Source of the DNA: Eubacteriales bacterium
Lineage (GTDB): Bacteria > Bacillota > Clostridia > Oscillospirales > CAG-272
Length of the DNA: 59,247 bases
Reading direction: 5' to 3'
NCBI GenBank assembly: GCA_045534435.1
Contig: JAZSJS010000030.1
Location: 1-59,247, forward strand
Shown here piece after piece: positions 1-54,346 of this stretch. The notes beneath the pieces were generated by a model. It ran no database searches, was not told the DNA's origin, and was given only the letters and a program-made list of their open reading frames with translations. Position 1 is the first letter of the stretch. Each line of letters opens with the position of its first letter. A program made the position numbers and the translations under genes.

Positions 1-1
1 G

Positions 2-778
2 AAGGTTGAAGAGGCAGCACGCGTGCTGGATATCACTCACTTGCTGGACCGTAAGCCGAAGGCTCTTTCGGGTGGTCAGAAGCAGCGTGTGGCACTCGGT
101 CGTGCAATCGTCCGTGATCCTCAGGTATTCTTGCTTGACGAGCCGCTTTCCAACTTGGACGCAAAGCTTCGTGCAGCAATGAGAACCGAGCTGACCAAGC
201 TCCATAATCGCGTTGTAACCACGTTTGTATACGTTACCCACGACCAGGTCGAGGCTATGACGATGGCAACCAGAATCGTTGTTATGAAGGACGGTCTGAT
301 CCAGCAGGTAGATACGCCTCAGAAGCTGTACGCCGAGCCTGTCAACATCTTCGTTGCAGGATTCATCGGAACGCCTCAGATGAACTTCCTCAACGGTACG
401 CTTGAGAAGGTTGGCGAGGACGTATTCTTCAACTATGAGGGCAACGCACTCAAGCTGCCCGCAGACAAGGCAAACAACCCCGCTCTTGCAGAGTACATCG
501 GCAAGGAAGTAGTTGCAGGTCTGCGTCCCGAGTGTATCCATGACGATGAGCTGAACATCTCCAAGTGCGAGGGCGCTACGCTGGACGCATTCGTTGACGT
601 TACCGAGCTCATGGGTGCAGAGATCTATCTCTACCTCAACGTTGGTGAAGAGGGCAAGCTCACCGCTCGCGTTTCCTCCAGATCCACCACCCGTGCAGGC
701 GACACCATCAAGATCGGCTTCGATATGTCCAGACTTCATATTTTCGACAAGGACACCGAGCGTTGCGTTCTGCACTGA
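2..778 (+). CDS. Sugar ABC transporter ATP-binding protein, MalK/MsmX/UgpC type (5' end lies outside the window)
   Basis: Open from the window edge. ABC signature LSGGQKQRVALGRA, Walker B FLLDEPLSNLD, H-loop VTHDQ, then a TOBE-like C-terminal domain. A strong terminator follows. Confidence 0.9.
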   Translation, partial: KVEEAARVLDITHLLDRKPKALSGGQKQRVALGRAIVRDPQVFLLDEPLSNLDAKLRAAMRTELTKLHNRVVTTFVYVTHDQVEAMTMATRIVVMKDGLIQQVDTPQKLYAEPVNIFVAGFIGTPQMNFLNGTLEKVGEDVFFNYEGNALKLPADKANNPALAEYIGKEVVAGLRPECIHDDELNISKCEGATLDAFVDVTELMGAEIYLYLNVGEEGKLTARVSSRSTTRAGDTIKIGFDMSRLHIFDKDTERCVLH

Positions 779-795
779 TCTCATTTGAATTGTTT

Positions 796-830
796 CCGTT
801 GTCGGGCATTTGCCCGACAACGGTTTTTTT
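796..830 (+). terminator. Intrinsic terminator
   Basis: Perfect 13-bp stem CCGTTGTCGGGCA / TGCCCGACAACGG with a 2-nt loop, followed by TTTTTTT. Confidence 0.9.
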
Positions 831-929
831 GTTCTTTTCTCTTGAATCTGTTGAAAAACTCTTTACTTTTGGTTGGATTTGTGATACAATATAAAGGATA
901 GAAACAAAAAGGAAAGGAGAAGCGCTGAC

Positions 930-1955
930 GTGAATCTCAATGAGCTTTATTATCGCCGTGTGATCGGAGCGATCGGCGGCTCGCTTCTGTTCTTTTTGCT
1001 GTTTCTCAACGTCTTTGGCGTGCTGGCAGTCTTTTTTGAGGAGATCCTGTTGTTCTTTTCTGTGACGCAGTCGATGGGAACAGTGATTTACCAGCTCTTC
1101 TATGCGGCGGGATATCTGCTTTCCTTCATGATGCCGGTTTTGATCCTGAAGGCACTTTTGAAGCGAAACGGAATTGCGTATCTGCCGATGCGCGCGGAAA
1201 TGAAGCTGACCCCCTGGATCGTGCTGATCGTGCCGGCGGGTATTTCTTTGGTTTATTCCATGGCATATATCAACGGCGCGTTCGTTTCGATCTTTGATTA
1301 TTCCAAATTTTCCTCCGATGTCTTGTGGGGAAGCGTTTCGGATGAAAGGCCCGAGCTCTATCATTGGGTGCTGGAATTTATCACGCTTTGTCTGGTTCCC
1401 GGCTTTTGCGAGGAATTTTTCTTCCGGGGTGCGATCCTGACCAACTGTCTGCCCTTCGGACGTACCAATGCCATCCTGATCAGCTCCTTTTTGTTCGCCA
1501 TGATGCATCAGAATGCCGAGCAGGTGCTCTACACCTTCGTTGCGGGCATCGTGTTGGGTCTGATCTATGAACGGACGGGGAATCTTTGGGCCTGTACCGT
1601 GATGCACGTTTTGAATAATTTTGTCTCGATTTATCAAGGCGTTCTGGGGTATCAATTTGAAACTCTGTTTTCCGCCAAGGCTGCGGTCGTGGCTGCGGAG
1701 GTGGTGCTTCTTCTTGTGGGACTGATCTCGTTGGCAATTTTGATCGTTCGCTTCTTTTCTCAAAGGCCGCGCTTCGGAGACGGATTTTTCGGAAGATCCT
1801 TGGAGGCGGCAGACGGATACGCACAGTATCCCATCGAAAGACGCCGTGCGGTGAAGCTTTTTTTGACGCCTTGCATGGTGATCTTCCTTGTGGCGTGTGT
1901 GTTGCAAATTCTGCTTTTGCTTCTGTTGGCGGTGGCTTATGGAATGCTTGCATGA
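930..1955 (+). CDS. CPBP family intramembrane glutamic endopeptidase (CAAX protease / Abi family)
   Basis: Polytopic membrane protein with the motifs EEFFFRG, FAMMHQ and HVLNNF. GTG start preceded by GGAGAAG. Confidence 0.8.
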   Translation: MNLNELYYRRVIGAIGGSLLFFLLFLNVFGVLAVFFEEILLFFSVTQSMGTVIYQLFYAAGYLLSFMMPVLILKALLKRNGIAYLPMRAEMKLTPWIVLIVPAGISLVYSMAYINGAFVSIFDYSKFSSDVLWGSVSDERPELYHWVLEFITLCLVPGFCEEFFFRGAILTNCLPFGRTNAILISSFLFAMMHQNAEQVLYTFVAGIVLGLIYERTGNLWACTVMHVLNNFVSIYQGVLGYQFETLFSAKAAVVAAEVVLLLVGLISLAILIVRFFSQRPRFGDGFFGRSLEAADGYAQYPIERRRAVKLFLTPCMVIFLVACVLQILLLLLLAVAYGMLA

Positions 1956-2397
1956 TGAAAAATGGATGCGCATGGCGCTGAGTGAGGCAGCCATGGCGGC
2001 AGAGAAGGGGGAGATCCCCGTGGGCGCGGTCATCGTTTGCAACGGCGAGCCGATCGCACGCGCGCAAAATCTTTGCGAGGCCGAGACGCGCGCCACGGCA
2101 CATGCCGAGGTTTTGGCGATCGAGGAGGCCTGCCGACGGCTTGGTCGCTGGAGACTTTCGGATTGCACGCTTTACGTCACGCTTGAGCCCTGTCCCATGT
2201 GTGCGGGCGCGGCGATCAATGCGCGCATTGGCCGCATCGTTTTTGCGGCAAAGGACGCGCGCGCCGGTGCGTGCGGAAGCCTTGTGAACCTGCCGTCCTA
2301 TCCCCTGGAGACACGCCCCGTGTGTGAGTGCGGCTTGATGCAGGAGGAATCTCTTGCGCTGCTTCGTGCATTTTTCGCGGATCTGCGAAAAAAATAA
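1939..2397 (+). CDS. tadA: tRNA adenosine(34) deaminase
   Basis: N-terminus HDEKWMRMAL, zinc motifs HAEVLAI and LEPCPMCAGA. The start was moved to the ATG just before the conserved N-terminus. Overlaps the CPBP gene by 17 nt. Confidence 0.9.
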   Translation: MECLHDEKWMRMALSEAAMAAEKGEIPVGAVIVCNGEPIARAQNLCEAETRATAHAEVLAIEEACRRLGRWRLSDCTLYVTLEPCPMCAGAAINARIGRIVFAAKDARAGACGSLVNLPSYPLETRPVCECGLMQEESLALLRAFFADLRKK

Positions 2398-2449
2398 CGT
2401 TTACAATTGTTTTATTTTTGAACCATATGGAAAGGCTTGGTAAAAACTT

Positions 2450-3454
2450 ATGTCAAAGCTCATGATTCCCGAAGGCTACAAATCCTTCCTCTCGCTTCGT
2501 CAAACCGAATACGCGATCAAAAAGGTGAAGGACTTTTTTGAGAGAGATCTCTCCACACAGCTCAATCTCATCCGTGTGTCTGCGCCTTTGTTCGTGGATC
2601 CCAACAGCGGATTGAACGATGACCTCAACGGCGTGGAGCGTCCCGTGCGTTTTGATCTTTTCACGGGCGAGGATCTGGAGATCGTGCATTCGCTTGCAAA
2701 ATGGAAGCGTTTTGCGCTCAAAAAATACGGATTTGAGGTTGGAGAGGGTCTTTATACCGATATGAACGCGATCCGCCGCGACGAGGAGACCGACAACATT
2801 CACTCGATGTTCGTGGATCAGTGGGACTGGGAGAAGATCATTACCCGAGACCAGCGCAACGAGGAGACCTTGAAGGAGATCGTCAACTGTATCTATCAGA
2901 GCCTGCGCCATACCGAAAATTATATCGTCAACGAATATTCCTTCATCGGACGTCTTTTGCCCGAGAAGATCACCTTCATCACCTCTCAGGAAATGGAGGA
3001 CCGCTGGCCCGAGATGACCGCCAAGGAGCGTGAATATGCCGCGGCAAAGGAATACGGCGCTATCTTCCTGATGAAGATCGGTGGAAAGCTCAAGAGCGGA
3101 AAGATCCACGACGGCAGAGCGCCCGACTATGACGATTGGAGCCTGAACGGAGACATCATCGTGTATTATCCGATCTTGGACATCGCATTGGAGCTTTCCT
3201 CGATGGGAATCCGCGTGGATGAGGAGGCACTGCACCGTCAGCTTTCCGAGCGCGGCTGCACCGATCGCGAGAATCTGCCGTTCCATCGCGCACTGCTTGA
3301 CGGCGAGCTGCCTTATACGGTTGGCGGAGGCATCGGGCAATCGCGCATGTGTATGTTCTTCCTGCGCAAGGCGCACATCGGAGAGGTCCAATCCTCGCAT
3401 TGGCAGGAAAAGGACATCAGGCTTTGTGAGGAAAAGGGCATTCATTTGCTTTGA
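2450..3454 (+). CDS. asnA: Aspartate--ammonia ligase (asparagine synthetase A)
   Basis: 334 aa, class-II aaRS-like AsnA layout. N-terminus LSLRQTEYAIKKVKDFFE, and the motifs SAPLFV, GGGIGQSR and MFFL. Confidence 0.88.
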   Translation: MSKLMIPEGYKSFLSLRQTEYAIKKVKDFFERDLSTQLNLIRVSAPLFVDPNSGLNDDLNGVERPVRFDLFTGEDLEIVHSLAKWKRFALKKYGFEVGEGLYTDMNAIRRDEETDNIHSMFVDQWDWEKIITRDQRNEETLKEIVNCIYQSLRHTENYIVNEYSFIGRLLPEKITFITSQEMEDRWPEMTAKEREYAAAKEYGAIFLMKIGGKLKSGKIHDGRAPDYDDWSLNGDIIVYYPILDIALELSSMGIRVDEEALHRQLSERGCTDRENLPFHRALLDGELPYTVGGGIGQSRMCMFFLRKAHIGEVQSSHWQEKDIRLCEEKGIHLL

Positions 3455-3542
3455 TCATCAAGGGGCGGCTTCATGAATTGCAGAATTGCTTTTCCATGAG
3501 CCCGCCCCTTTCATTCACGTTAGGAAAGAAAAGAGGATGGAT

Positions 3543-4613
3543 ATGAAGCTGTTTCGCAGCGTTTTTTGTTGCTTTTTGGCAACGGTAACGCTTTGTCTCT
3601 GTCTGCTCTCCTGTCAAAATGAGGAGGCCGTTCCACCGTTGTTTTCTTGCCGCTCCCTGACATGGGGCGTTGGCGGGAGATTGCCGGAGGCAGAGGATTT
3701 TGTGGAATCCTTGCCACAGGGATATACCGTGCGCTTTGCAGAGGACTATGCGTTTTCCAATTTGGGCGACTATTCGCTCAAGCTGATTTTCACCGACGAA
3801 CGCGGAAGGGAGACCGAGCGTGAGGTCGCGCTGAGTCTGATTTTGGACGCGGAGCCGCCCACCGTCACGGGTGTTGCGGATCTTTCGGTCTGCGTCGGAG
3901 ACGGCATTTCTTACCGTGCCGGAGTGCAGATCTCGGATAACTGTGATGCTCCCGTCACCCTGACGGTCGATTCGTCCGCCGTCAATACCGCGGCAGAGGG
4001 AAGCTATCCCGTGATCTACACCGCGAAGGACGGAGCGGGGAACGTCACCACCGTGACCGCAACCGTCTACGTCTATTTGCAGGCGGTGACAGAGGAGATG
4101 CTTTGGGTGGAGATCGACCGACTGATCGCCACCAATATTCCGCAGTCGGCAACCGTCGAGGAGCAGGTGCGCGCGGTCTATCACTGTGTTTACGATTCGA
4201 TCGAATATACCAGCCATTCGGACAAGAGCAATTGGGTGCGTGCCGCATACGAGGGAATCCGGACAGGACAGGGCGATTGCTACACCTATTTTGCGCTTTC
4301 CAAGGCATTTTTGATCCGACTTGGCATTGAAAACATGGATATTCAACGCACGAAGGGGATCGTGGAGGAGCGTCACTATTGGAATTTTGTGAACGTCGGA
4401 AGCAAGGACGCGCCGAGGTGGTATCACTTGGATGCCTGTCACATTCTCGGTGAGCCCAAGCCCTTCGGATGCTTGATGACCGATGCGCAGATCGCCGCGT
4501 TCAGCGCGGAGAGGACCGATAGCAACGGTGTTTCCGGCTATTTTTACGCCTATGACACCACAGCGTATCCCGCAAGTGAGACAAGGGTCATCACCCCCAC
4601 TTTTTACGACTGA
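3543..4613 (+). CDS. Lipoprotein with an Ig-like domain and a transglutaminase-like Cys-His-Asp domain
   Basis: Lipobox LCLLSC after a signal peptide. Ig-like/HYR-like segment (EPPTVTG...YPVIYTAKDGAGNVTTVTATVYV). Transglutaminase-core pattern GDCYTY ... HYWNFV ... WYHLDA. RBS AAGAGG lies 6 nt before the ATG at 3543. Confidence 0.7.
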   Translation: MKLFRSVFCCFLATVTLCLCLLSCQNEEAVPPLFSCRSLTWGVGGRLPEAEDFVESLPQGYTVRFAEDYAFSNLGDYSLKLIFTDERGRETEREVALSLILDAEPPTVTGVADLSVCVGDGISYRAGVQISDNCDAPVTLTVDSSAVNTAAEGSYPVIYTAKDGAGNVTTVTATVYVYLQAVTEEMLWVEIDRLIATNIPQSATVEEQVRAVYHCVYDSIEYTSHSDKSNWVRAAYEGIRTGQGDCYTYFALSKAFLIRLGIENMDIQRTKGIVEERHYWNFVNVGSKDAPRWYHLDACHILGEPKPFGCLMTDAQIAAFSAERTDSNGVSGYFYAYDTTAYPASETRVITPTFYD

Positions 4614-4630
4614 CGAGGGAGAGGCAATAT

Positions 4631-6157
4631 ATGCAAACCAACATTCTTGAATATCTCGAGGCGACCGCTCCGCGCGTTCCCTCGAAGATTGCCTACTCGG
4701 ACGGAAGCTACGACATGTGCTTTTCCGAGCTTTTCGACCGTTCGCGACGACTGGGGAGCGCGCTTTTGCACCGCGGCTTTTCAGGCGAGCCGATCGCCAT
4801 TCTGATGACCAAGCATCCGCGTCAGATCGCGGCTTTTTACGGCTGTGTTTACGCGGGCTGCTACTACGCACCGCTCGACACCGATATGCCCGCGCACCGC
4901 ATGGAGGTCATTCTTGAAAGCGTGGGTGCACGCGCGGTGATCGTCGATGAAAAGGGAGAAAAGCTGATCTCCAAATTGAATTTTGACGGCGAGATCCTTC
5001 GTTATGCCGATCTCGCGGAAGAGAGTGCAGACGATCTTGCGCTGCGTGCGGTCAGGGAAAGGCAGATCGACACCGATCCCATCTACATTGTCTTCACCTC
5101 GGGCTCTACGGGCATTCCCAAGGGGGTGATCGCCTGCCACAGATCGGTGATCGACTACGTCGAGGCACTTTGTGATGCACTCGGATTTTCCGAGGATACG
5201 GTTTTTGCCAACCAAACGCCGCTCTTCTTTGACGCACCGCTCAAGGTGCTGATGCCGGTCATCAAGTTCGGTGCGACGGCATATCTCGTTCCCAAGCAGC
5301 TCTTCATGTTCCCGATGAAGCTTTGCGATTTTCTCAACGAGCACCGCGTCAACACGGTCTGCTGGGTGGTTTCGGCACTGACGATGATCTCTTCGCTCGG
5401 CGTGCTGGAGAAAAATCCGCCGCGCTATCTCACCACGGTTGCGTTTGGCAGTGAGGTGTTTCCCATTCGTCAGTACAAGCTTTGGAGAGAGGCACTTCCG
5501 GGGGCACAGTTTTTCAATCTTTACGGTCCCACCGAGGCGACGGGAATGTCCTGCTATTGGAAGGCAGACCGTGATCTGGAGGAGGGCGAAGCGATTCCCG
5601 TGGGACGCCCCTTCCGCAATACGGATCTGTTGCTGATCACAGAGGACGGCAGAAGAGCCGTTGCGGGAGAGACGGGAGAGATCTATCTGCGCGGCACCTG
5701 CGTGACGCACGGATACTATCGCAATCCCGAAAAGACCGCCGAGGCATTCGTGCAAAATCCGTTGCATGACCACTATCCAGAGACCGTCTACCGCACGGGA
5801 GACCTTGCATATTACAACGCGCATGGGGAATTGGTGTTCGTTTCGCGCAAGGACGCGCAGATCAAGCACATGGGACATCGCATCGAGCTTGGCGAGATCG
5901 AAGCCGCAGCCGCGCTTTGCAAGGATATTTTGCGCGCGTGTTGCGTATATGACGGCGAAAACAAGCGCATTTTATTGTATTATACGGGAGAGGTGAGCGG
6001 CGAGGCTTTGATCGCCTTTCTCAAGGGATATCTGCCGCGCTACATGCTTCCCGCGGAGTGCATCGCACTCTCTGAGATGCCGTTGACCCCCAACGGCAAG
6101 CTGGACCGCAAGCGTCTGGCAAGCGGCATGGATCTGCCCAAAAAGATAGAACGTTAA
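4631..6157 (+). CDS. DltA-like amino-acid adenylating enzyme (ANL superfamily), no carrier domain
   Basis: 508 aa. Motifs IVFTSGSTGIPKGV, LYGPTEAT, YRTGDLA, KHMGHRIELGEIE and PNGKLDRK. Size and layout resemble D-alanine--carrier protein ligase. Sits 17 nt after the previous gene. Confidence 0.8.
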   Translation: MQTNILEYLEATAPRVPSKIAYSDGSYDMCFSELFDRSRRLGSALLHRGFSGEPIAILMTKHPRQIAAFYGCVYAGCYYAPLDTDMPAHRMEVILESVGARAVIVDEKGEKLISKLNFDGEILRYADLAEESADDLALRAVRERQIDTDPIYIVFTSGSTGIPKGVIACHRSVIDYVEALCDALGFSEDTVFANQTPLFFDAPLKVLMPVIKFGATAYLVPKQLFMFPMKLCDFLNEHRVNTVCWVVSALTMISSLGVLEKNPPRYLTTVAFGSEVFPIRQYKLWREALPGAQFFNLYGPTEATGMSCYWKADRDLEEGEAIPVGRPFRNTDLLLITEDGRRAVAGETGEIYLRGTCVTHGYYRNPEKTAEAFVQNPLHDHYPETVYRTGDLAYYNAHGELVFVSRKDAQIKHMGHRIELGEIEAAAALCKDILRACCVYDGENKRILLYYTGEVSGEALIAFLKGYLPRYMLPAECIALSEMPLTPNGKLDRKRLASGMDLPKKIER

Positions 6158-6173
6158 GGAATTTACGGTTATT

Positions 6174-7607
6174 ATGATGATCGAACAGCTTCCGCAAACA
6201 AAAGCATTAACCTTTGAACGCGCCGAAAAATTCGGCTTGGAGCGAATTGCGGCGTATTACAGGGACTGTGACTACAATATTTGTGAATATTCGCTTGGCA
6301 TCAAGCTGATGTGCGCATCTCTTTACCGCTATCGCTTTGCCGAGGTGGCGGGATGTCTCGTTTGCCGCGACGAATATGAAGGGATCGTGTATTTCGATTA
6401 TCCCGTCGTTGGCCCCGAGGGAAATCTCGAGGAGGCGCTCTCTGCCATTGAGAGCTATTGCATGGAAGAGGATCTGCCTCTGCGCTACACCACACTCCCG
6501 CCGTCTTCTCTCGGACTTTTGAGCGCCCGCTACGACGGAGTGCGTCTGCGCAAGACCTATGAATGCCGCGATTATTGCTATCGCACGGAGGATGTTTTGG
6601 CGTTTTCCGGCAAAAAATATGCCGGACAGCGCAATCACATCCGCCGATTTTACCGCTCCTATCCAAACGCGGTCTTTCGCAAGATGACCGCCGAGGATAT
6701 TCCCGCGCTCGAGGTGTTTGCCAACCGCTTTGACGCCACCTTCCAAAAGCGCGGCGAGGATGCGGTCAATGAGAGGGAAAAGGCGTTTGCGATGCTTCGC
6801 ATGGACCGCGACGATCTGTTTCGTATCGGATGCATGGAGCTGGACGGCGAGATCATCGGCGTGGCGCTGGGCGAGAAGTGCGGTGACGTCCTGCTTGAGC
6901 ATATCGAAAAGGCGTTGTCGTCCGAATATGAGGGCATCTATCCCGCGCTTTTTCAGGCGTTTGTCACAACCTTTGGCGGGGATTGTACCTACGTCAACCG
7001 CGAGGACGATGCCGCCGATCGAGGACTCAGAACCTCCAAAATGCAGTATCATCCCGCGCATATTTCGCAAAAATACGACATGGACGTTCTCAATCTTCTT
7101 TCCTTTTTGGAGGAGATCCCGACGGTCGAGACCGAACGTCTCACCTTGACCGCCATTGAGGAGTCGGATGCCGAGGACTATCGCAGGCTTTGCCTCGACG
7201 ATGCGCACAACCGCTATTGGGGATACGATTATCGCACCGATCTTGGTGACGCGAGCACCGACGGATCCTATTTCGTTGACGTGGCACGCACCGATTTTGA
7301 CGGGCGGCGCACCTTGAATTTTGCCATCCGTGCCAATGGTGTATTTGTTGGGGAGACGGTGCTGTATCGCTTTGACAACCGCGGCGGTGTCGAGCTTGGT
7401 GTGCGGATCCTACCCGCCTTTTTGCGTCGCGGCTACGGCAAGGAATCCTTCGAGGCAACGGCAAATTGGGCAATTTACGGGCTCGGTGCCGAGCGAGTGG
7501 TGGCAAAATGCTTTCGCGAGAATGCGGCATCGGTCGCCATGCTCTCGTCTGTGATGCGACAGGTTGGAGAGGATGAAACTATGTTGTATTTTGAAAAGAC
7601 GGTTTGA
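6174..7607 (+). CDS. Fusion protein: DUF2156 (MprF C-terminal-like dupli-GNAT) domain plus C-terminal RimJ/RimL-type GNAT
   Basis: N-terminal ~310 aa carry DUF2156-type motifs (EYSLGIKLM..., DYCYRTEDVLAFSGKKYAGQRNHIRRFYRSY). C-terminal ~165 aa begin TERLTLTAIEESDAEDY and end RRGYGKE...NAASVAMLSSVM, a GNAT pattern. Sits 16 nt after the adenylase gene. Confidence 0.7.
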   Translation: MMIEQLPQTKALTFERAEKFGLERIAAYYRDCDYNICEYSLGIKLMCASLYRYRFAEVAGCLVCRDEYEGIVYFDYPVVGPEGNLEEALSAIESYCMEEDLPLRYTTLPPSSLGLLSARYDGVRLRKTYECRDYCYRTEDVLAFSGKKYAGQRNHIRRFYRSYPNAVFRKMTAEDIPALEVFANRFDATFQKRGEDAVNEREKAFAMLRMDRDDLFRIGCMELDGEIIGVALGEKCGDVLLEHIEKALSSEYEGIYPALFQAFVTTFGGDCTYVNREDDAADRGLRTSKMQYHPAHISQKYDMDVLNLLSFLEEIPTVETERLTLTAIEESDAEDYRRLCLDDAHNRYWGYDYRTDLGDASTDGSYFVDVARTDFDGRRTLNFAIRANGVFVGETVLYRFDNRGGVELGVRILPAFLRRGYGKESFEATANWAIYGLGAERVVAKCFRENAASVAMLSSVMRQVGEDETMLYFEKTV

Positions 7608-7639
7608 CCGTAGCTTTTTTCAAAAATGGACGGAAATGA

Positions 7640-7668
7640 TTGACAAGAAGATCTTTTTATGATATAAT
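7640..7668 (+). promoter_or_regulatory. Sigma-A type promoter for asnS
   Basis: TTGACA, 17-nt spacer, TATAAT, with an extended -10 TG (TGATATAAT). About 45 nt upstream of the asnS start. Confidence 0.75.
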
Positions 7669-7712
7669 AATAAAGTTAACAAATGACAGAAAGCTTTTCC
7701 GAGAGGTGGACC

Positions 7713-9107
<1,395 letters not shown>

Positions 9108-9120
9108 TCCAAATCAAAAT

Positions 9121-9146
9121 GGGTGCGCCGAAGGGCGCACCCATTT
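9121..9146 (+). terminator. Probable terminator after asnS
   Basis: GGGTGCGCC GAAG GGCGCACCC forms a 9-bp GC stem, but only a short ATTT tract follows. Confidence 0.5.
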
Positions 9147-9174
9147 CAAAAAAAGGAAGGGAGGAGACGCATCG

Positions 9175-9759
9175 ATGACCCATCCGTTTCGTCATTTTCA
9201 TACGATTACCAAGCACCGCCACCGTGTGATCGTTCACTGCTTCCGTGCCGGGATCGGCTTTCAGGGATTGTTTCACGATCTTTCCAAGTATGCTCCCACC
9301 GAGTTTTTGCCGGGCGCGCGCTATTATCAGGGCACACGCAGTCCCAACGAGCGGGAGCGCGAGGTGTACGGATATTCGGTGGCATGGATGCATCACAAGG
9401 GACGCAATCGCCATCATTTTGAATATTGGAACGACGTCAATCCGCAAACCAAGACCTATGAGCCGGTGCCCATGCCGATGCGCTTTGTGAAGGAGATGTT
9501 TTGTGACCGCATCGCCGCAAGCAAGATTTATCAAGGGAAAAACTATACGGATCAGCACCCCATCACCTATTTCCGTCGCGGAAGCGCACGCAAAAAAATG
9601 CACGTTGCGACGGCAGATTTGTTGGAGGAATGGCTTGTGATGCTTGCAGAGCAGGGTGAGAAGGCAACCTTTGCACACATCAAAAAAATCCCCAATCGGA
9701 AGGTCTATTACGAAAAAGACGAGCGCTTTTCAAAAGCAAAAGAGAGAATGTCAAAATGA
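9175..9759 (+). CDS. DUF5662-like conserved hypothetical protein
   Basis: 194 aa. Motifs HDLSKY, YYQGTRSPN and WMHHKGRNRHHFEYW, as recalled for the DUF5662 family. RBS GGGAGGAG before the ATG at 9175. Confidence 0.6.
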   Translation: MTHPFRHFHTITKHRHRVIVHCFRAGIGFQGLFHDLSKYAPTEFLPGARYYQGTRSPNEREREVYGYSVAWMHHKGRNRHHFEYWNDVNPQTKTYEPVPMPMRFVKEMFCDRIAASKIYQGKNYTDQHPITYFRRGSARKKMHVATADLLEEWLVMLAEQGEKATFAHIKKIPNRKVYYEKDERFSKAKERMSK

Positions 9760-9775
9760 CATTCTCTCTTTTTTG
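9741..9775. terminator. Bidirectional terminator between the DUF5662-like gene and pheT
   Basis: AGAGAGAATGTCA AAA TGACATTCTCTCT gives a 13-bp stem. It is flanked by an A-run upstream and TTTTTT downstream. Confidence 0.8.
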
Positions 9776-9777
9776 GA

Positions 9778-12183
9778 TCAGCCTCGGAGCTCCAGGCCCA
9801 TCTTGAACTTCAGATCATTCAAGATCTTCTTGGAAACCTTGTCGGCTTCTTCCACGGTCAGCGTGCGATCTGCGGCACGGAGCGTGACACGCAGGGAGAC
9901 CGACTTTTTGTTTTCACCGATCTGCGGACCGCGGTAAATGTCGAACAGCGCGACGTTTTCCACCAGCTTTCCGCCGGCCTTTGCCATCACGCCCTCGATT
10001 GCGCCAACCTCCATCTCCTCGTCACAAACAAAGGAGAAGTCACGCGTGGTTGCGGGATATTTGGGCAACGCGCGGTATGCCTTTTCGGTGTTTGCAAGCG
10101 CGAAGAGACGGGCAAAGTTGATCTCTGCCACGAAAACAGGCAGATTCATATCGTAATTTGCCGCCATCAGAGGATGTGCCTGACCAAAGACCGCAATCTC
10201 GGTGCCATCCTCGGCAAAAATCTTTGCACATCTGCCGGGATGGTAAGCGGGATTGTCGGTGCAAGCCGTCACGGTTGCATGCTTGATGCCTGCAAGACGG
10301 AGCAGATTTTCACAAACGCCCTTGAGTGCGTAGAAATCGGTGTTTCCGTAAGCACCGATCGTCAGCACTGCCGGCTCATCGGGAAGCTCGTTGGCGGATT
10401 CCTTGGGCAAATAAATCTTTGCAATCTCAAACAGGCGAACGTTTTCGTTGTTGAAGTTGTTGTTGCGCGCCAGAACCTCCATCATGGAAGGAAGGGCGGT
10501 GGTGCGCATCACGCTCGTGTCCTCTCCCAAGGGGTTGGAGATCACCACAGAGCGACGAAGCGGCGAATCCGCGGGCATACGAACCTTGTCGTAATATTTC
10601 GGGCTGATGAAGGAGAAGGTGTGGATCTGAGAATAGCCCATACCGACCATCGCAGCCTCGGTATCCAGTTCGAACTGCTGGCTTTCGCTTCTGCCGCCCA
10701 GAGTGGTTTCTGCGTTCATGGTGGAGGATTCGATCTTGTCGTAACCGTAAATACGGCAAACCTCCTCCGCAATGTCGTTCATGCATCCAAGGTCGGCACG
10801 GAAGGAAGGAACGTAGATCTTGCCATCCTCGACGCGGCATCCGAGACCTGTCAGCGTGGTCAGCATTTGCTCCTCGGGGATGTTCATGCCGAGGAACTCG
10901 TTGTAGCGTGCGGGAGTGAAGGGAAGCACCGTGGGAGTCCAGGGCGTGGGATAAACATCAATGATGCCGTCGACCACGTCACCCGCACCCAACAGCTCAA
11001 CCAATTCGCAAGCGCGCTCCAGGCCCGCCATGCAGTTTTCGGGATCAAGTCCCTTTTCAAAGCGTGCGGAGGATTCGGTGCGCATACCGTTTTTCTTTGC
11101 GGTGACGCGGACCGATGCGCCGTTGAAGCAAGCCGATTCAAAGACGACGGTTGCGGTCTTTTCGGTGATCTCAGAGTTTGCACCACCCATCACACCTGCC
11201 AGAGCGCAGGCCTTTTTGCTGTCTGCGATGACGAGCATCGAGCTGTCCAGCGTGTGATCCTGATCGTCGAGAGAACGGAAGCTTTCACCTTCTGCCGCAC
11301 GGCGCACGTCGATTGCCGAGCCCTCAAGCTGCTGATAGTCAAAGGCGTGCATGGGCTGACCGTATTCCAGCATGACGTAGTTGGTGATGTCTACGATATT
11401 ATTGATCGGACGCACACCCGACGCGCGCAGACGCATCCTCATCCACAGAGGCGAGGGTGCAATCTTCACATTTTTGACCACTCTTGCCGCATAGCGGTAG
11501 CAGAGGTCGGGGGCAGAGATTCCCACCTTGAGATAGTTTTCGATCTTGTCGCCGTCACCCGCACCCTTGACAACGGGCGCCTTGACGGTCAGTTCTTTTC
11601 CAAAGGAAACGGGGGGCTCGCGTGCAAGACCGATGACGGAAAGACAGTCGGGGCGGTTGGAGGTGATCTCAAACTCCACCGAGGTGTCGTTCAGCATCAG
11701 CACGTCGCGAATGTCGTCGCCAATGCGATCCTCAAATTCCTCATCAAGGATCAGAATGCCGTTTTCCTCCTTGCCGGGGCATTCATGCGCCGTCAGCTTC
11801 AATTCACCCATGGAGCAGAGCATTCCGTCAGACTCCACGCCGCGCAGCTTTCCTGCCTTGATCACGATGTCACCCGGCAGCTTTGCCACGGGAAGAGCGG
11901 CGGGCACCAGCGCGCCGACAAAGACGTTTTGCGCGCCGGTCACGATCTGAATATCATGTCCGTGCTTCTCGCCCGCATCCAAACGGCAGACCCAGAGGTG
12001 ATCCGAGTCGGGGTGCTTTTCCATTTTGGTTACCTTTGCAACCACCACGTTTTCAATATCCTCGCCAAGGACCTCAAAGCCCTCGACCTTCGATCCCGTG
12101 ATCGTCAGCTTGTCACAGTAGGTTTTATTGTCGATCTCGTCGACGTTGACGAAATCGGAAAGCCAATTTCTTGAAAGATTCAT
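9778..12183 (-). CDS. pheT: Phenylalanine--tRNA ligase beta subunit
   Basis: 801 aa. N-terminus MNLSRNWLSDFV, tRNA-binding domain (KHPDSDHLWVCRLD), B3/4, B5 and C-terminal FDX-ACB domains. Lies immediately downstream of pheS. Confidence 0.95.
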   Translation of the reverse strand: MNLSRNWLSDFVNVDEIDNKTYCDKLTITGSKVEGFEVLGEDIENVVVAKVTKMEKHPDSDHLWVCRLDAGEKHGHDIQIVTGAQNVFVGALVPAALPVAKLPGDIVIKAGKLRGVESDGMLCSMGELKLTAHECPGKEENGILILDEEFEDRIGDDIRDVLMLNDTSVEFEITSNRPDCLSVIGLAREPPVSFGKELTVKAPVVKGAGDGDKIENYLKVGISAPDLCYRYAARVVKNVKIAPSPLWMRMRLRASGVRPINNIVDITNYVMLEYGQPMHAFDYQQLEGSAIDVRRAAEGESFRSLDDQDHTLDSSMLVIADSKKACALAGVMGGANSEITEKTATVVFESACFNGASVRVTAKKNGMRTESSARFEKGLDPENCMAGLERACELVELLGAGDVVDGIIDVYPTPWTPTVLPFTPARYNEFLGMNIPEEQMLTTLTGLGCRVEDGKIYVPSFRADLGCMNDIAEEVCRIYGYDKIESSTMNAETTLGGRSESQQFELDTEAAMVGMGYSQIHTFSFISPKYYDKVRMPADSPLRRSVVISNPLGEDTSVMRTTALPSMMEVLARNNNFNNENVRLFEIAKIYLPKESANELPDEPAVLTIGAYGNTDFYALKGVCENLLRLAGIKHATVTACTDNPAYHPGRCAKIFAEDGTEIAVFGQAHPLMAANYDMNLPVFVAEINFARLFALANTEKAYRALPKYPATTRDFSFVCDEEMEVGAIEGVMAKAGGKLVENVALFDIYRGPQIGENKKSVSLRVTLRAADRTLTVEEADKVSKKILNDLKFKMGLELRG

Positions 12184-52107: not shown

Positions 52108-52150
52108 AGAAAGCATTATCCGGAAAACGGGTAATGCTTTCTCTCTGTTT
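52108..52150. terminator. Bidirectional terminator (AGAAAGCAT...ATGCTTTCT family)
   Basis: AGAAAGCATTA ... TAATGCTTTCT outer stem, inner CCG/CGG pairing, flanked by an A-run and CTCTGTTT. Confidence 0.7.
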
Positions 52151-53600
52151 ATGGAACCAAAAGCGCTCTTTCGGAGAAGGGGAGCTTTCGAGAGCCGACG
52201 AGCTGATAGGCCTCGTGGCCTTTGCCTGCAAGAACGAGAAGATCTCCGGCTTTTGCCTCTTTCAGTGCGGCACGAATGGCTTCGGCGCGGTCGGGAATGG
52301 TGAGATAGGGCGTTTGGGAGCCCTCAAAGGCCTTTGCGATGTCCCGGATGATGGCATCGGGCGATTCCTTTCCGGGATTATCGGAGGTCAGGATCGCGAG
52401 ATCTGCATAGGCGGCGGCAGCCGCTCCAAGCTCTGCTCGCCGAAGCTGAGAGCGCTCGCCAACCGAGCCGAAAAGAACGATCAGACGTTCCTCGGTGTAT
52501 GCGCGGAGAGACGAGAGCAACCGAGAAAGGCTCTCGCCGTTGTGTGCGTAGTCAATGACGGCAATCGCACCGCAGGAAAGACGAACGATCTCCGAGCGCC
52601 CCTCGATCGAGGCATCGGCAAGTGCGTCTGCGATGCAAGCGAGCGAAATGCCGAAGGTGTCGCTTGCCACTGCGGCGGCAAGCAGGGCGTTGCTTGCGTT
52701 GAAGCTTCCCATCAAGGGCAGACGGCAGAATGCGTGCGACTGCTTGTGGCAGAGGTCAAATTCGATGCCGTATGCATCGAAATCCTTGAATATGCGCAGA
52801 TTCTTGGCAACAAAATCGGCAGAAGGATCTTGCACGGAGCAGGTACGGATCGTGGCGAGACTCCCGCTCACCGTTTCGGTCGCGGCAGGATCGTCGAGAT
52901 TGCAAACGATGCTTTTGGCTTCGAACTCCCGGAAGAGTCGACTCTTGCAAGAACGGTAATGCTCAAAATCGGGATGCTCGTTGACACCGATGTGGTCGGA
53001 GGAGAGGTTGGTAAACACCGCCGTTTCAAAGCGTGTTCCGTCGGCGCGATATTGCATCAGCGCCTGCGAGGAAACCTCAATGACGGCGGTTTGGATTCCG
53101 GCGGCAAGCATATCGTGCAAATGCTTTTGCAGGGTGATGGCGTCGGGGGTGGTGTTGGAGGTCTTTTGGAAAACCTCTCCGTAGCGCACACCGTTCGTGC
53201 CGATATAGCCACAGGGAATTCTCATATGATTGAGAATGTGTGAGAGCAGCAGCGCCGTTGTGGTCTTGCCCTTGGTACCCGTAATACCGACCAGATGCAT
53301 ACGGTGAGAGGGGTTACCGTAAAAGGTCGCGGCAAGATGAGCCAATGCCCGTCTGGAGCTGTCGCAATAAAAGATCTGCGCGTCATCCGGAAGCGCGAGA
53401 GGCTTTTCGGCGACGAAGTGACGGCAACCGCGGCGATAGGCATCGGCGGCATAGTCGTGTCCGTCGGCGTTTGCGCCCGCAATGCAGAAAAAGAGAGCAT
53501 TCGCGTCGGCGCACGAGGAGCTTTCGGTCAGCGAGGTGATCTCGGCATCGCAGGTTGGTTTTGCGGGGAAATAGGCTTGCAGAAGCTTTGAAAGAGTCAT
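52149..53600 (-). CDS. murE: UDP-N-acetylmuramoyl-L-alanyl-D-glutamate--diamino acid ligase
   Basis: Mur ligase motifs GITGTKGKTTT, NLSSDH and DYAHN. The third-domain motif reads DNPG where DAP-adding enzymes carry DNPR. Confidence 0.88.
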   Translation of the reverse strand: MTLSKLLQAYFPAKPTCDAEITSLTESSSCADANALFFCIAGANADGHDYAADAYRRGCRHFVAEKPLALPDDAQIFYCDSSRRALAHLAATFYGNPSHRMHLVGITGTKGKTTTALLLSHILNHMRIPCGYIGTNGVRYGEVFQKTSNTTPDAITLQKHLHDMLAAGIQTAVIEVSSQALMQYRADGTRFETAVFTNLSSDHIGVNEHPDFEHYRSCKSRLFREFEAKSIVCNLDDPAATETVSGSLATIRTCSVQDPSADFVAKNLRIFKDFDAYGIEFDLCHKQSHAFCRLPLMGSFNASNALLAAAVASDTFGISLACIADALADASIEGRSEIVRLSCGAIAVIDYAHNGESLSRLLSSLRAYTEERLIVLFGSVGERSQLRRAELGAAAAAYADLAILTSDNPGKESPDAIIRDIAKAFEGSQTPYLTIPDRAEAIRAALKEAKAGDLLVLAGKGHEAYQLVGSRKLPFSERALLVP

Positions 53601-54346
53601 GAGCGTGCTCCTTCTGCCGCAGGCGTGAGATCGGAGGAGAATCCGATCGGCACTTTTTTGCAGGCCAGGATCGTCTGATAGGCGAGAACCTCCAGCGAAT
53701 CAAGGAAGATCGGATCGTCCGAAAGCTGCTTTTTGAGCAGAGAAAGCTCGGTGCAGCCCAGAACGATCTTTTCGCATCCGCGCGCACGAAGCGAGCTTAC
53801 CACACGCAAAAAGGCGGAAAAATCCACGGGACGGTTTTGCTTGACGTCGTCGTAGATGATCGAGGAAATGATCTGTTGCTCCTCGGGGGAGGGAACCAGG
53901 CAGCAAAGTCCGTGCTTTTCGCAGATCTGCGCATATGCTCCCGAGCTCACCGTTCCCGCCGTGGCAAGCAACCCAAAGGTCTGAACCCCGTTTCGCTTGA
54001 GCTGCTTGACGGTTTCCTCGATGATGTTGAGCATCGGTGTGCGGATGCTTTGGCGGAGTCCATTGTAAAAATAATGCGCCGTATTGCAGGGAATGACGAT
54101 CAGATCACACCCCGCGCGAGTGAGACGCTCTGCCTCCTCCCTCATGACGGGAAGCGGATCGCTTGCGCTTGTTCCGAGGATAAAGGCGGTCCTGTCGGGT
54201 GTGGAGGCGCGGCTGCTGACGATCATGTCAATGTGATCGGCGTCGGAGCAGGCTTGGGTGTGCGAGGTCAGAAGCTCGCAAAAATAGAAGGTAGACATGG
54301 GGCCCAATCCACCCAAAACGCCCAAAAGAGAAGTCTTTTGATTCAT
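53597..54346 (-). CDS. Aspartate/glutamate racemase family protein (aspartate racemase-like)
   Basis: GVLGGLGPMST at the N-terminus, catalytic-Cys regions IPCNTAHYF and LGCTELS. ATGA overlap with murE. Confidence 0.8.
   Translation of the reverse strand: MNQKTSLLGVLGGLGPMSTFYFCELLTSHTQACSDADHIDMIVSSRASTPDRTAFILGTSASDPLPVMREEAERLTRAGCDLIVIPCNTAHYFYNGLRQSIRTPMLNIIEETVKQLKRNGVQTFGLLATAGTVSSGAYAQICEKHGLCCLVPSPEEQQIISSIIYDDVKQNRPVDFSAFLRVVSSLRARGCEKIVLGCTELSLLKKQLSDDPIFLDSLEVLAYQTILACKKVPIGFSSDLTPAAEGARS

Follow-up and report, generated by a model that had tools for sequence, protein, structure and literature searches.

The DNA considered here, referred to below as the window, is a 59,247-nucleotide contig (JAZSJS010000030.1, contig C92) from the metagenome-assembled genome of an Eubacteriales bacterium (Clostridia, Oscillospirales, CAG-272), which is 84% complete and consists of 174 contigs. 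Three consecutive genes on its forward strand, at positions 3543 to 7607, encode a transglutaminase (TG)-like lipoprotein, a stand-alone amino-acid adenylase and a protein in which a DUF2156 domain is fused to a GNAT acetyltransferase domain. The first two genes (3543-6157) probably constitute the first half of a Dlt-like system for envelope aminoacylation, comprising six genes split over two loci, whereas the fusion gene would be a dispensable neighbor. A preliminary description of this stretch put forward, as one hypothesis, a non-canonical envelope aminoacylation route built from these three genes; this interpretation is partly supported, as the trio appears to comprise half of a Dlt-like variant together with a passenger gene.

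The second half of the system lies on contig C31, downstream of thrS, where a cluster of genes encodes a 75-amino acid PP-binding protein, a 529-amino acid MBOAT protein, a 342-amino acid membrane-anchored SGNH-like protein and a 164-amino acid lipoprotein. This cluster contains no adenylase. Whole-genome profile searches for PP-binding and MBOAT domains matched only contigs C86, C131 and C31, with no gene of either family on the window contig, and no dltD gene was found in the window. The earlier statement that dltB, dltC, dltD and carrier genes are lacking is, thus, correct for the window but not for the genome, because C31 holds a DltC/DltB/DltD-like, albeit non-canonical, cluster. Apart from the window adenylase, the genome encodes no amino-acid adenylase: the remaining ANL enzymes comprise two acyl-CoA ligase types (C76 and C110) and two shorter AMP-binding matches on C113 that resemble phenylacetate-CoA ligases by sequence. 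A phosphopantetheinyl transferase is encoded on C142. The adenylase is predicted to load the carrier encoded on C31.

The two halves are joined in other members of the family. In a sample of 20 adenylase orthologue loci from other genera, the order TG-like lipoprotein, adenylase, carrier, MBOAT was found in 15, and the SGNH gene came next in 14 of these 15. A search of the GTDB species representatives with an alignment of nine TG sequences yielded 478 relatives, the best 80 of which were examined; all 80 belonged to Clostridia of the gut or rumen that have not been cultured (Oscillospiraceae, 'Eubacteriales' and Clostridium sp. CAG:448). The TG gene was directly followed by the adenylase gene in about 77 of these 80 loci, so the exported TG-like lipoprotein, already proposed as a partner in the preliminary description, is a true one; all five genes were displayed by 19 of the 80 loci. 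A sixth gene, encoding a small lipoprotein, followed in 21 of the 22 operons examined; its counterpart on C31 (C31:13369-13860, minus strand) encodes a protein of about 164 amino acids with no Pfam match.

Within the genus of the window, the presence of the adenylase, MBOAT and fusion genes was scored in 61 species. Adenylase genes were found in 56 species and MBOAT genes in 57: the two halves occurred together in 56 species, neither occurred in four (the same genomes for both genes), and one, the genome of which is 72% complete, had the MBOAT only (Fisher p = 9.6e-6). The adenylase and MBOAT genes are never adjacent within the genus, although both are present in one genome on a single contig, 11 kb apart. 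In the adenylase tree, the adenylases of the split type form a single clade with a support of 99/100, implying a single break of the operon, at the base of the genus. The adenylase and the carrier/MBOAT cluster, each an 'orphan' at its own locus in this genus, therefore belong together as one system, a point of relevance for annotation.

The adenylase (4631..6157, plus strand, 508 amino acids) gave a Pfam AMP-binding match of 1.7e-65, and all five domains named in the preliminary description were recovered by the Pfam profile search, AMP-binding_C (2e-4) falling just under the cut-off. It passes the amino-acid adenylation domain model TIGR01733 (325 bits, cut-off 317.4). All the ANL core motifs reported previously are indeed visible in the sequence (A1-A10), including TSGSTGIPKG, YGPTE, YRTGD and PNGKLDRK, which bears the A10 Lys, and there is no PP-binding domain. 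The enzyme is DltA-like, as had been suggested, but it is not DltA: it scored 250.9 bits (249 in the genome search) on the DltA equivalog TIGR01734, the cut-off for which is 559.85, whereas the true DltAs of the phylum scored 565-711 bits, and many modules of non-ribosomal peptide synthetases (NRPSs), at about 290-330 bits, ranked above it.

The substrate pocket was compared, as the preliminary description had recommended, with that of canonical DltAs recovered from the phylum (four to six in the alignment), at the positions named in the literature (PMC8972799). The residues of the D-alanine pocket differ, with D-A-x-x-K, FGSE and TEATGMSC in place of the canonical D-L-x-x-M, FCGE and TEATVAVT. 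The Asp binding the α-amino group is retained, but Leu197 is replaced by Ala, Met200 by Lys and Cys268 by Gly. In DltA, these three residues form the pocket for the methyl group of D-alanine, and the Cys selects the D over the L enantiomer (PMC8972799). The pocket Lys is conserved across all the non-canonical orthologues. Judging from these residues, the substrate is probably not D-alanine. In NRPS specificity codes, Lys at this position occurs in domains with acidic substrates, and the substrate here may be an acidic amino acid, although this should be seen as a lead rather than a result.

The carrier encoded on C31 matches the PP-binding profile (31.3 bits, cut-off 20.8) and has the conserved Ser of the LDSL motif, but falls short of both DltC equivalogs (NF003464, 40.1 versus 68 bits; TIGR01688, 27.9 versus 52.35 bits). 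The MBOAT protein matches PF03062 (62-64 bits, cut-off 27) and fails the DltB equivalog TIGR04091 (143.7 versus 375 bits). The His of its RWH(I/M)T motif and its C-terminal FIYNQF are conserved in the orthologues. The latter corresponds to the FXYXXF acyl-shuttle motif, which is fused to the enzyme in PatA-type MBOATs and carried separately, by the DltX microprotein, in Dlt systems (PMC12148441); here, it is fused. The C31 cluster thus combines the invariant His, the C-terminal FXYXXF and the adjoining SGNH-fold protein that mark MBOAT-SGNH acyl-shuttle systems. Dlt is reportedly the only one of the MBOAT/SGNH pathways to have a carrier protein (PMC12148441).

The SGNH-like protein had no match in NCBIfam, that is, no DltD profile match, and only a weak partial match to Lipase_GDSL_2 in Pfam. 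Its structural model (predicted local distance difference test score, pLDDT, of 88) has an N-terminal membrane helix, and its best match in the PDB was DltD (3bma, E = 1.2e-4), followed by further DltD structures (6pfx and 6o93) and then by other SGNH enzymes, including PatB. Block I reads GDCE, with Cys as the nucleophile, in all the TG-linked operons. Four distant variants without the TG gene have an SGNH gene, and in three of them this position is occupied by Ser. Homologues of the SGNH protein with this Cys (P0127-P0245) carry the precomputed Pfam accession PF27429, and the family may have been named recently.

The TG-like lipoprotein (3543..4613, plus strand, 356 amino acids) is the first gene product of the system. 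Its open reading frame opens at a TTG codon at 3486 and has in-frame ATG codons at 3537 and 3543. The protein has a signal peptide, a lipobox (LLSC), two Ig-like domains and a transglutaminase/papain-like core, and two Pfam profiles were matched above their cut-offs: Bact_surface_Ig-like (PF16403, 9.3e-7) and Transglut_core (PF01841, 2.4e-5, 25 versus 23 bits). Cys (in GDC), His and Asp show no variation across 43 orthologues and correspond to C248, H280 and D299 when numbered from the ATG at 3537. The profile match and this triad place the protein in the transglutaminase-like superfamily, its activity being predicted from sequence. The AlphaFold2 model (pLDDT 94) matched Rib/Ig domains and, for the core, a putative Cys protease (3isr); these Ig-like domains and this one protease were the only matches of the PDB fold search, which provided no clue to function.

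The best available analogy for this lipoprotein is provided by DltE of Lactiplantibacillus plantarum, an additional extracellular hydrolase/transferase encoded within the dlt operon (PMC13653941), and by FmtA of Staphylococcus aureus, which has a comparable extracellular role (PMC12505958). Both edit or relocate the ester (PMC13653941; PMC12505958). They are serine enzymes of the penicillin-binding-protein/beta-lactamase type, whereas the lipoprotein has a Cys-His-Asp transglutaminase/papain-like fold and two Ig-like domains, and any functional parallel between them would be putative.

The notion of a non-canonical envelope aminoacylation route, put forward in the preliminary description, can be retained, at the level of inference, and a mechanism can be outlined by analogy with Dlt and PatAB, in which we infer not only the chemistry of each step but also the substrate and the acceptor. 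The adenylase would activate an α-amino acid and link it, as a thioester, to the phosphopantetheine arm of the 75-amino acid carrier. The C31 MBOAT would then carry the aminoacyl group across the membrane to the Tyr of its own C-terminal FIYNQF, from which the membrane-anchored DltD-fold SGNH protein, with Cys replacing Ser as the nucleophile, would accept it and pass it to an acceptor at the cell surface. The Cys-His-Asp lipoprotein encoded by the first gene and the lipoprotein of about 160 amino acids encoded by the last would be constant extracellular partners, the former perhaps catalyzing the last transfer or editing the product as an esterase, in a manner comparable to DltE or FmtA. A more daring version, which we consider rather doubtful, is an acyl relay running from the carrier thioester to an ester on the Tyr of the MBOAT tail, then to a thioester on the SGNH Cys and, finally, to the Cys of the TG-fold lipoprotein. 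Its cargo would be a residue other than alanine, probably acidic (Asp- or Glu-like, perhaps of the D form), delivered to an envelope acceptor, possibly as an amide rather than an ester, and in the subclade of the window the fusion protein might tailor this cargo.

The closest known system is Dlt (DltA, DltC, DltB, DltX and DltD), which D-alanylates the teichoic acids of Bacillota. In Gram-positive bacteria, surface aminoacylation of the Dlt type controls how the surface is charged, how well the cells resist cationic peptides and how they interact with the host. Both systems have a stand-alone adenylase, a phosphopantetheinyl carrier of about 75 amino acids, an MBOAT with an invariant His, an FXYXXF tyrosine shuttle and a membrane-anchored SGNH protein, which here matches DltD best in structure. 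However, the proteins described here are not orthologous to those of Dlt, as all the NCBIfam equivalog cut-offs are missed; the pocket residues are Ala, Lys and Gly rather than Leu, Met and Cys; the shuttle forms part of the MBOAT rather than a DltX microprotein; the SGNH nucleophile is Cys; there are two additional conserved lipoproteins; and the gene order is TG-A-C-B-D-lipoprotein, with the operon split over two loci in the genus of the window. PatA/PatB and other MBOAT-SGNH acetyltransferase pairs also have a long MBOAT (529 amino acids here) with its own C-terminal FXYXXF (FIYNQF here, FIYANF in PatA of N. gonorrhoeae) and a paired SGNH transferase, but they use acetyl-CoA as the donor and have no carrier protein (PMC12148441), whereas a dedicated adenylase and a dedicated carrier are encoded here.

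AlmEFG, which modifies Vibrio lipid A with glycine, consists of the DltA-like AlmE, the carrier AlmF and the LpxL-type acyltransferase AlmG; by this description, it is set apart by its acyltransferase, the partners here being an MBOAT and an SGNH protein. No published description of the six-gene cassette was found in literature searches. Many Clostridia of the gut and rumen, all uncultured, would carry a rebuilt version of Dlt, in which the amino-acid pocket differs, the MBOAT bears its own shuttle, the SGNH enzyme has a cysteine nucleophile and a partner protein has the transglutaminase fold; the TG search alone yielded the 478 relatives among GTDB species representatives.

The third gene of the window (6174..7607, plus strand) encodes an apparently soluble, accessory protein of 477 amino acids. 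Its N-terminal 300 residues match LPG_synthase_C/DUF2156 (6.5e-29, 101 bits), its C-terminal domain matches Acetyltransf_3 (2.1e-18), and the nearest sequence in the PDB is a free-standing DUF2156 protein (2hqy). More than 1,200 homologues are annotated as 'GNAT family N-acetyltransferase', and nearly all of the 120 listed share this architecture; an exact-sequence look-up of the protein gave no match. The protein shares its DUF2156 (dupli-GNAT) domain with the C-terminal domain of MprF and with ErdS/ErgS (PMC7334510; PMC8913301). It differs from this group in having neither a membrane flippase domain nor a fused aminoacyl-tRNA synthetase, and in its extra C-terminal GNAT domain of the RimJ/RimL type. 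With no hydrophobic N-terminal domain, it lacks the combination of flippase domain and DUF2156 that characterizes MprF-type aminoacyl-phosphatidylglycerol synthases. DUF2156 domains are aminoacyl-tRNA transferases and do not use aminoacyl-AMP, and some are free-standing (PMC7334510; PMC8913301). The protein is most likely cytosolic and independent of the system, combining a transferase that depends on aminoacyl-tRNA with an N-acetyltransferase.

The distribution of the fusion gene differs from that of its neighbors. A close orthologue (57-89% identical) is present in nine of the 61 species of the genus, located in the gap between the adenylase gene and asnS wherever the contigs allow a view. 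Among the 56 species carrying the adenylase, 47 are without the fusion gene, and in another (G148) the only copy is distant and unlinked. The adenylase tree calls for a minimum of three gains or losses. A distant copy of the fusion gene has been kept in three genomes of the same genus that have neither the adenylase nor the MBOAT. In other genera, no adenylase, TG gene or conserved neighbor lies within 8 kb of the fusion and free-standing DUF2156 homologues, and the two genes are on different contigs in genomes with both the fusion and the adenylase. Co-occurrence of the three genes, suggested earlier as a check, is therefore observed for the TG gene with the adenylase gene but not for the fusion gene. 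This is, in a modified form, the situation that the preliminary description had named as weakening its hypothesis: a DltCBD-like, non-canonical cluster exists elsewhere in the genome, and one of the two neighbors of the adenylase is not co-conserved with it.

These data bear directly on the model of the preliminary description, in which the substrate is activated by the adenylase and passed to a lipid or polymer by the DUF2156 and GNAT array, the product then being acted on by the exported TG-like enzyme, with no need for a carrier or an MBOAT. The tight spacing of the three genes and the conservation of the TG-adenylase-fusion order in one subclade are consistent with such a self-contained route. 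However, a dedicated carrier/MBOAT/SGNH cluster exists on C31, directly follows TG and adenylase orthologues in other genera and co-occurs with the adenylase within the genus; a transfer step performed by the GNAT array is difficult to reconcile with the absence of the fusion gene from most adenylase-bearing species; and the DUF2156 enzymes described to date take aminoacyl-tRNA rather than aminoacyl-AMP (PMC7334510; PMC8913301). This route is already largely refuted by the phylogenetic profile, and we consider it highly improbable. The fusion protein could, alternatively, be a tailoring enzyme in the subclade bearing it, extending the amino acid on the carrier by a further residue taken from aminoacyl-tRNA, or N-acetylating this amino acid, before export by the MBOAT. 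A carrier-bound peptide is the substrate of PacB, a transferase of the Fem type. Co-transcription, implied by the 16-nucleotide gap and the shared terminator, the persistence of the adjacency despite changes in the flanks (L066 and L069) and the occurrence of a GNAT gene between the adenylase and carrier genes in an independent distant variant (L059 and L060) would all fit such a role. The repeated gains or losses of the fusion gene while the TG-adenylase pair stayed in place, its retention in the three genomes devoid of adenylase and MBOAT, and its lack of conserved neighbors in other genera point the other way, and tailoring of the pathway in this subclade therefore seems unlikely; the gene is probably co-transcribed with the adenylase gene yet functionally separate from it.

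It is also improbable, to a similar degree, that the system is a divergent but true Dlt system D-alanylating teichoic acids. The four roles (adenylase, carrier, MBOAT and DltD-fold SGNH protein) are the same, DltA, DltC and DltB are the best-named of the weak NCBIfam matches, and in one relative (L069) an alanine racemase is encoded by the second gene downstream of the fusion. Nevertheless, every equivalog cut-off is missed, by a factor of about two, the adenylase ranks below many NRPS modules on the DltA model, the residues of the D-alanine pocket, including the Cys that selects between D and L, are replaced by Ala, Lys and Gly (PMC8972799), and the MBOAT-borne shuttle motif, the Cys nucleophile of the SGNH protein and the two extra lipoproteins also speak against this reading. 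The split Dlt-like system with a dispensable neighbor remains the best explanation, but several points weigh against it. The pairing of carrier and adenylase across two loci is drawn from the synteny of orthologues and from co-occurrence, in a genome that is an incomplete MAG, and the components are known only through gene content, synteny, co-occurrence, motifs and folds. The 16-nucleotide gap between the adenylase and fusion genes has been kept across species in which the fusion proteins are 57-89% identical, even where the downstream flank has changed, and the GNAT gene of the distant variant mentioned above lies within the pathway genes.

The layout of the locus in the window corresponds to that previously described. 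The lipoprotein and adenylase genes are separated by 17 nucleotides and the adenylase and fusion genes by 16, and the three genes lie between asnA (aspartate-ammonia ligase, 2450..3454, plus strand; TIGR00669, 343 bits, cut-off 292.8) and asnS (asparagine-tRNA ligase, 7683..9107, plus strand; NF003037, 675 bits), both backbone genes outside the system. A weak terminator-like hairpin (7599-7611) and a T-run close the fusion gene (7599..7620, plus strand). As previously noted, asnS has its own promoter, a perfect TTGACA-17-TATAAT (7640..7668, plus strand; 12/12 consensus positions, with an extended -10 TG). The start of asnS is probably the ATG at 7713 rather than position 7683; this ATG is preceded by a ribosome-binding site (GAGAGGTGG), orthologues align only from residues 8-11 onward, and 7668 is the last position of the -10 box. 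An Rfam search of positions 1-12000 revealed no T-box or leader RNA.

The TG-adenylase-fusion order is kept in five independent assemblies, with fusion proteins 89, 77, 67, 64 and 59% identical to that of the window, which rules out a binning or assembly artefact; four of these assemblies have asnA upstream, and three have asnS downstream. The usual layout in the genus is asnA-TG-adenylase-asnS, and in a genome of the same genus without the whole system (L179), asnA directly abuts asnS. The flanks are, thus, backbone synteny rather than evidence of function, and a functional tie of the system to asnA and asnS (an Asx theme) was rejected as unsupported, the two genes being simply adjacent where the system is absent.

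A search for Asp/Glu racemases near either locus led to the sole gene of this family found in the genome, 46 kb away in the window (52149-54346, minus strand). It is of the asp_race/CuyB type (TIGR00035, 195 bits), just passes the cysteate-racemase equivalog (198 versus 190 bits) and overlaps murE by 4 nucleotides; no murI-type gene was seen in the genome. The D-Glu of peptidoglycan, or a D-amino acid used by the Dlt-like system, could come from this racemase. The alanine racemase gene of the relative with a fusion protein 59% identical to that of the window is located at L069:8019-9194, and the alr gene of the window genome is on C32.

Distant variants of the system differ in composition. In two that lack the TG gene and have Ser in SGNH block I (GDSE), a pyridoxal phosphate-dependent decarboxylase of the ornithine/diaminopimelate/arginine type is encoded between the adenylase and the carrier (L057:6876-8072, minus strand; L058:9582-10763, plus strand), which hints at an acidic amino acid being decarboxylated on the carrier. 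In another (L059:9600-14033; L060:9571-14862), the genes encode an adenylase, a protein of 258-281 amino acids, the L059 copy of which was scanned as a GNAT, a carrier and an MBOAT, and the SGNH protein is replaced by a protein of about 620 amino acids with a polysaccharide-deacetylase domain.

In the window genome, C131 encodes a 398-amino acid protein with an N-terminal PP-binding domain fused to another domain (C131:1441-2637, minus strand). About 13 kb away, a second MBOAT, ending in FAYTQF, is paired with a DHHW/AlgX-type protein (C131:15465-18056, plus strand); this pair is probably a separate O-acylation system.

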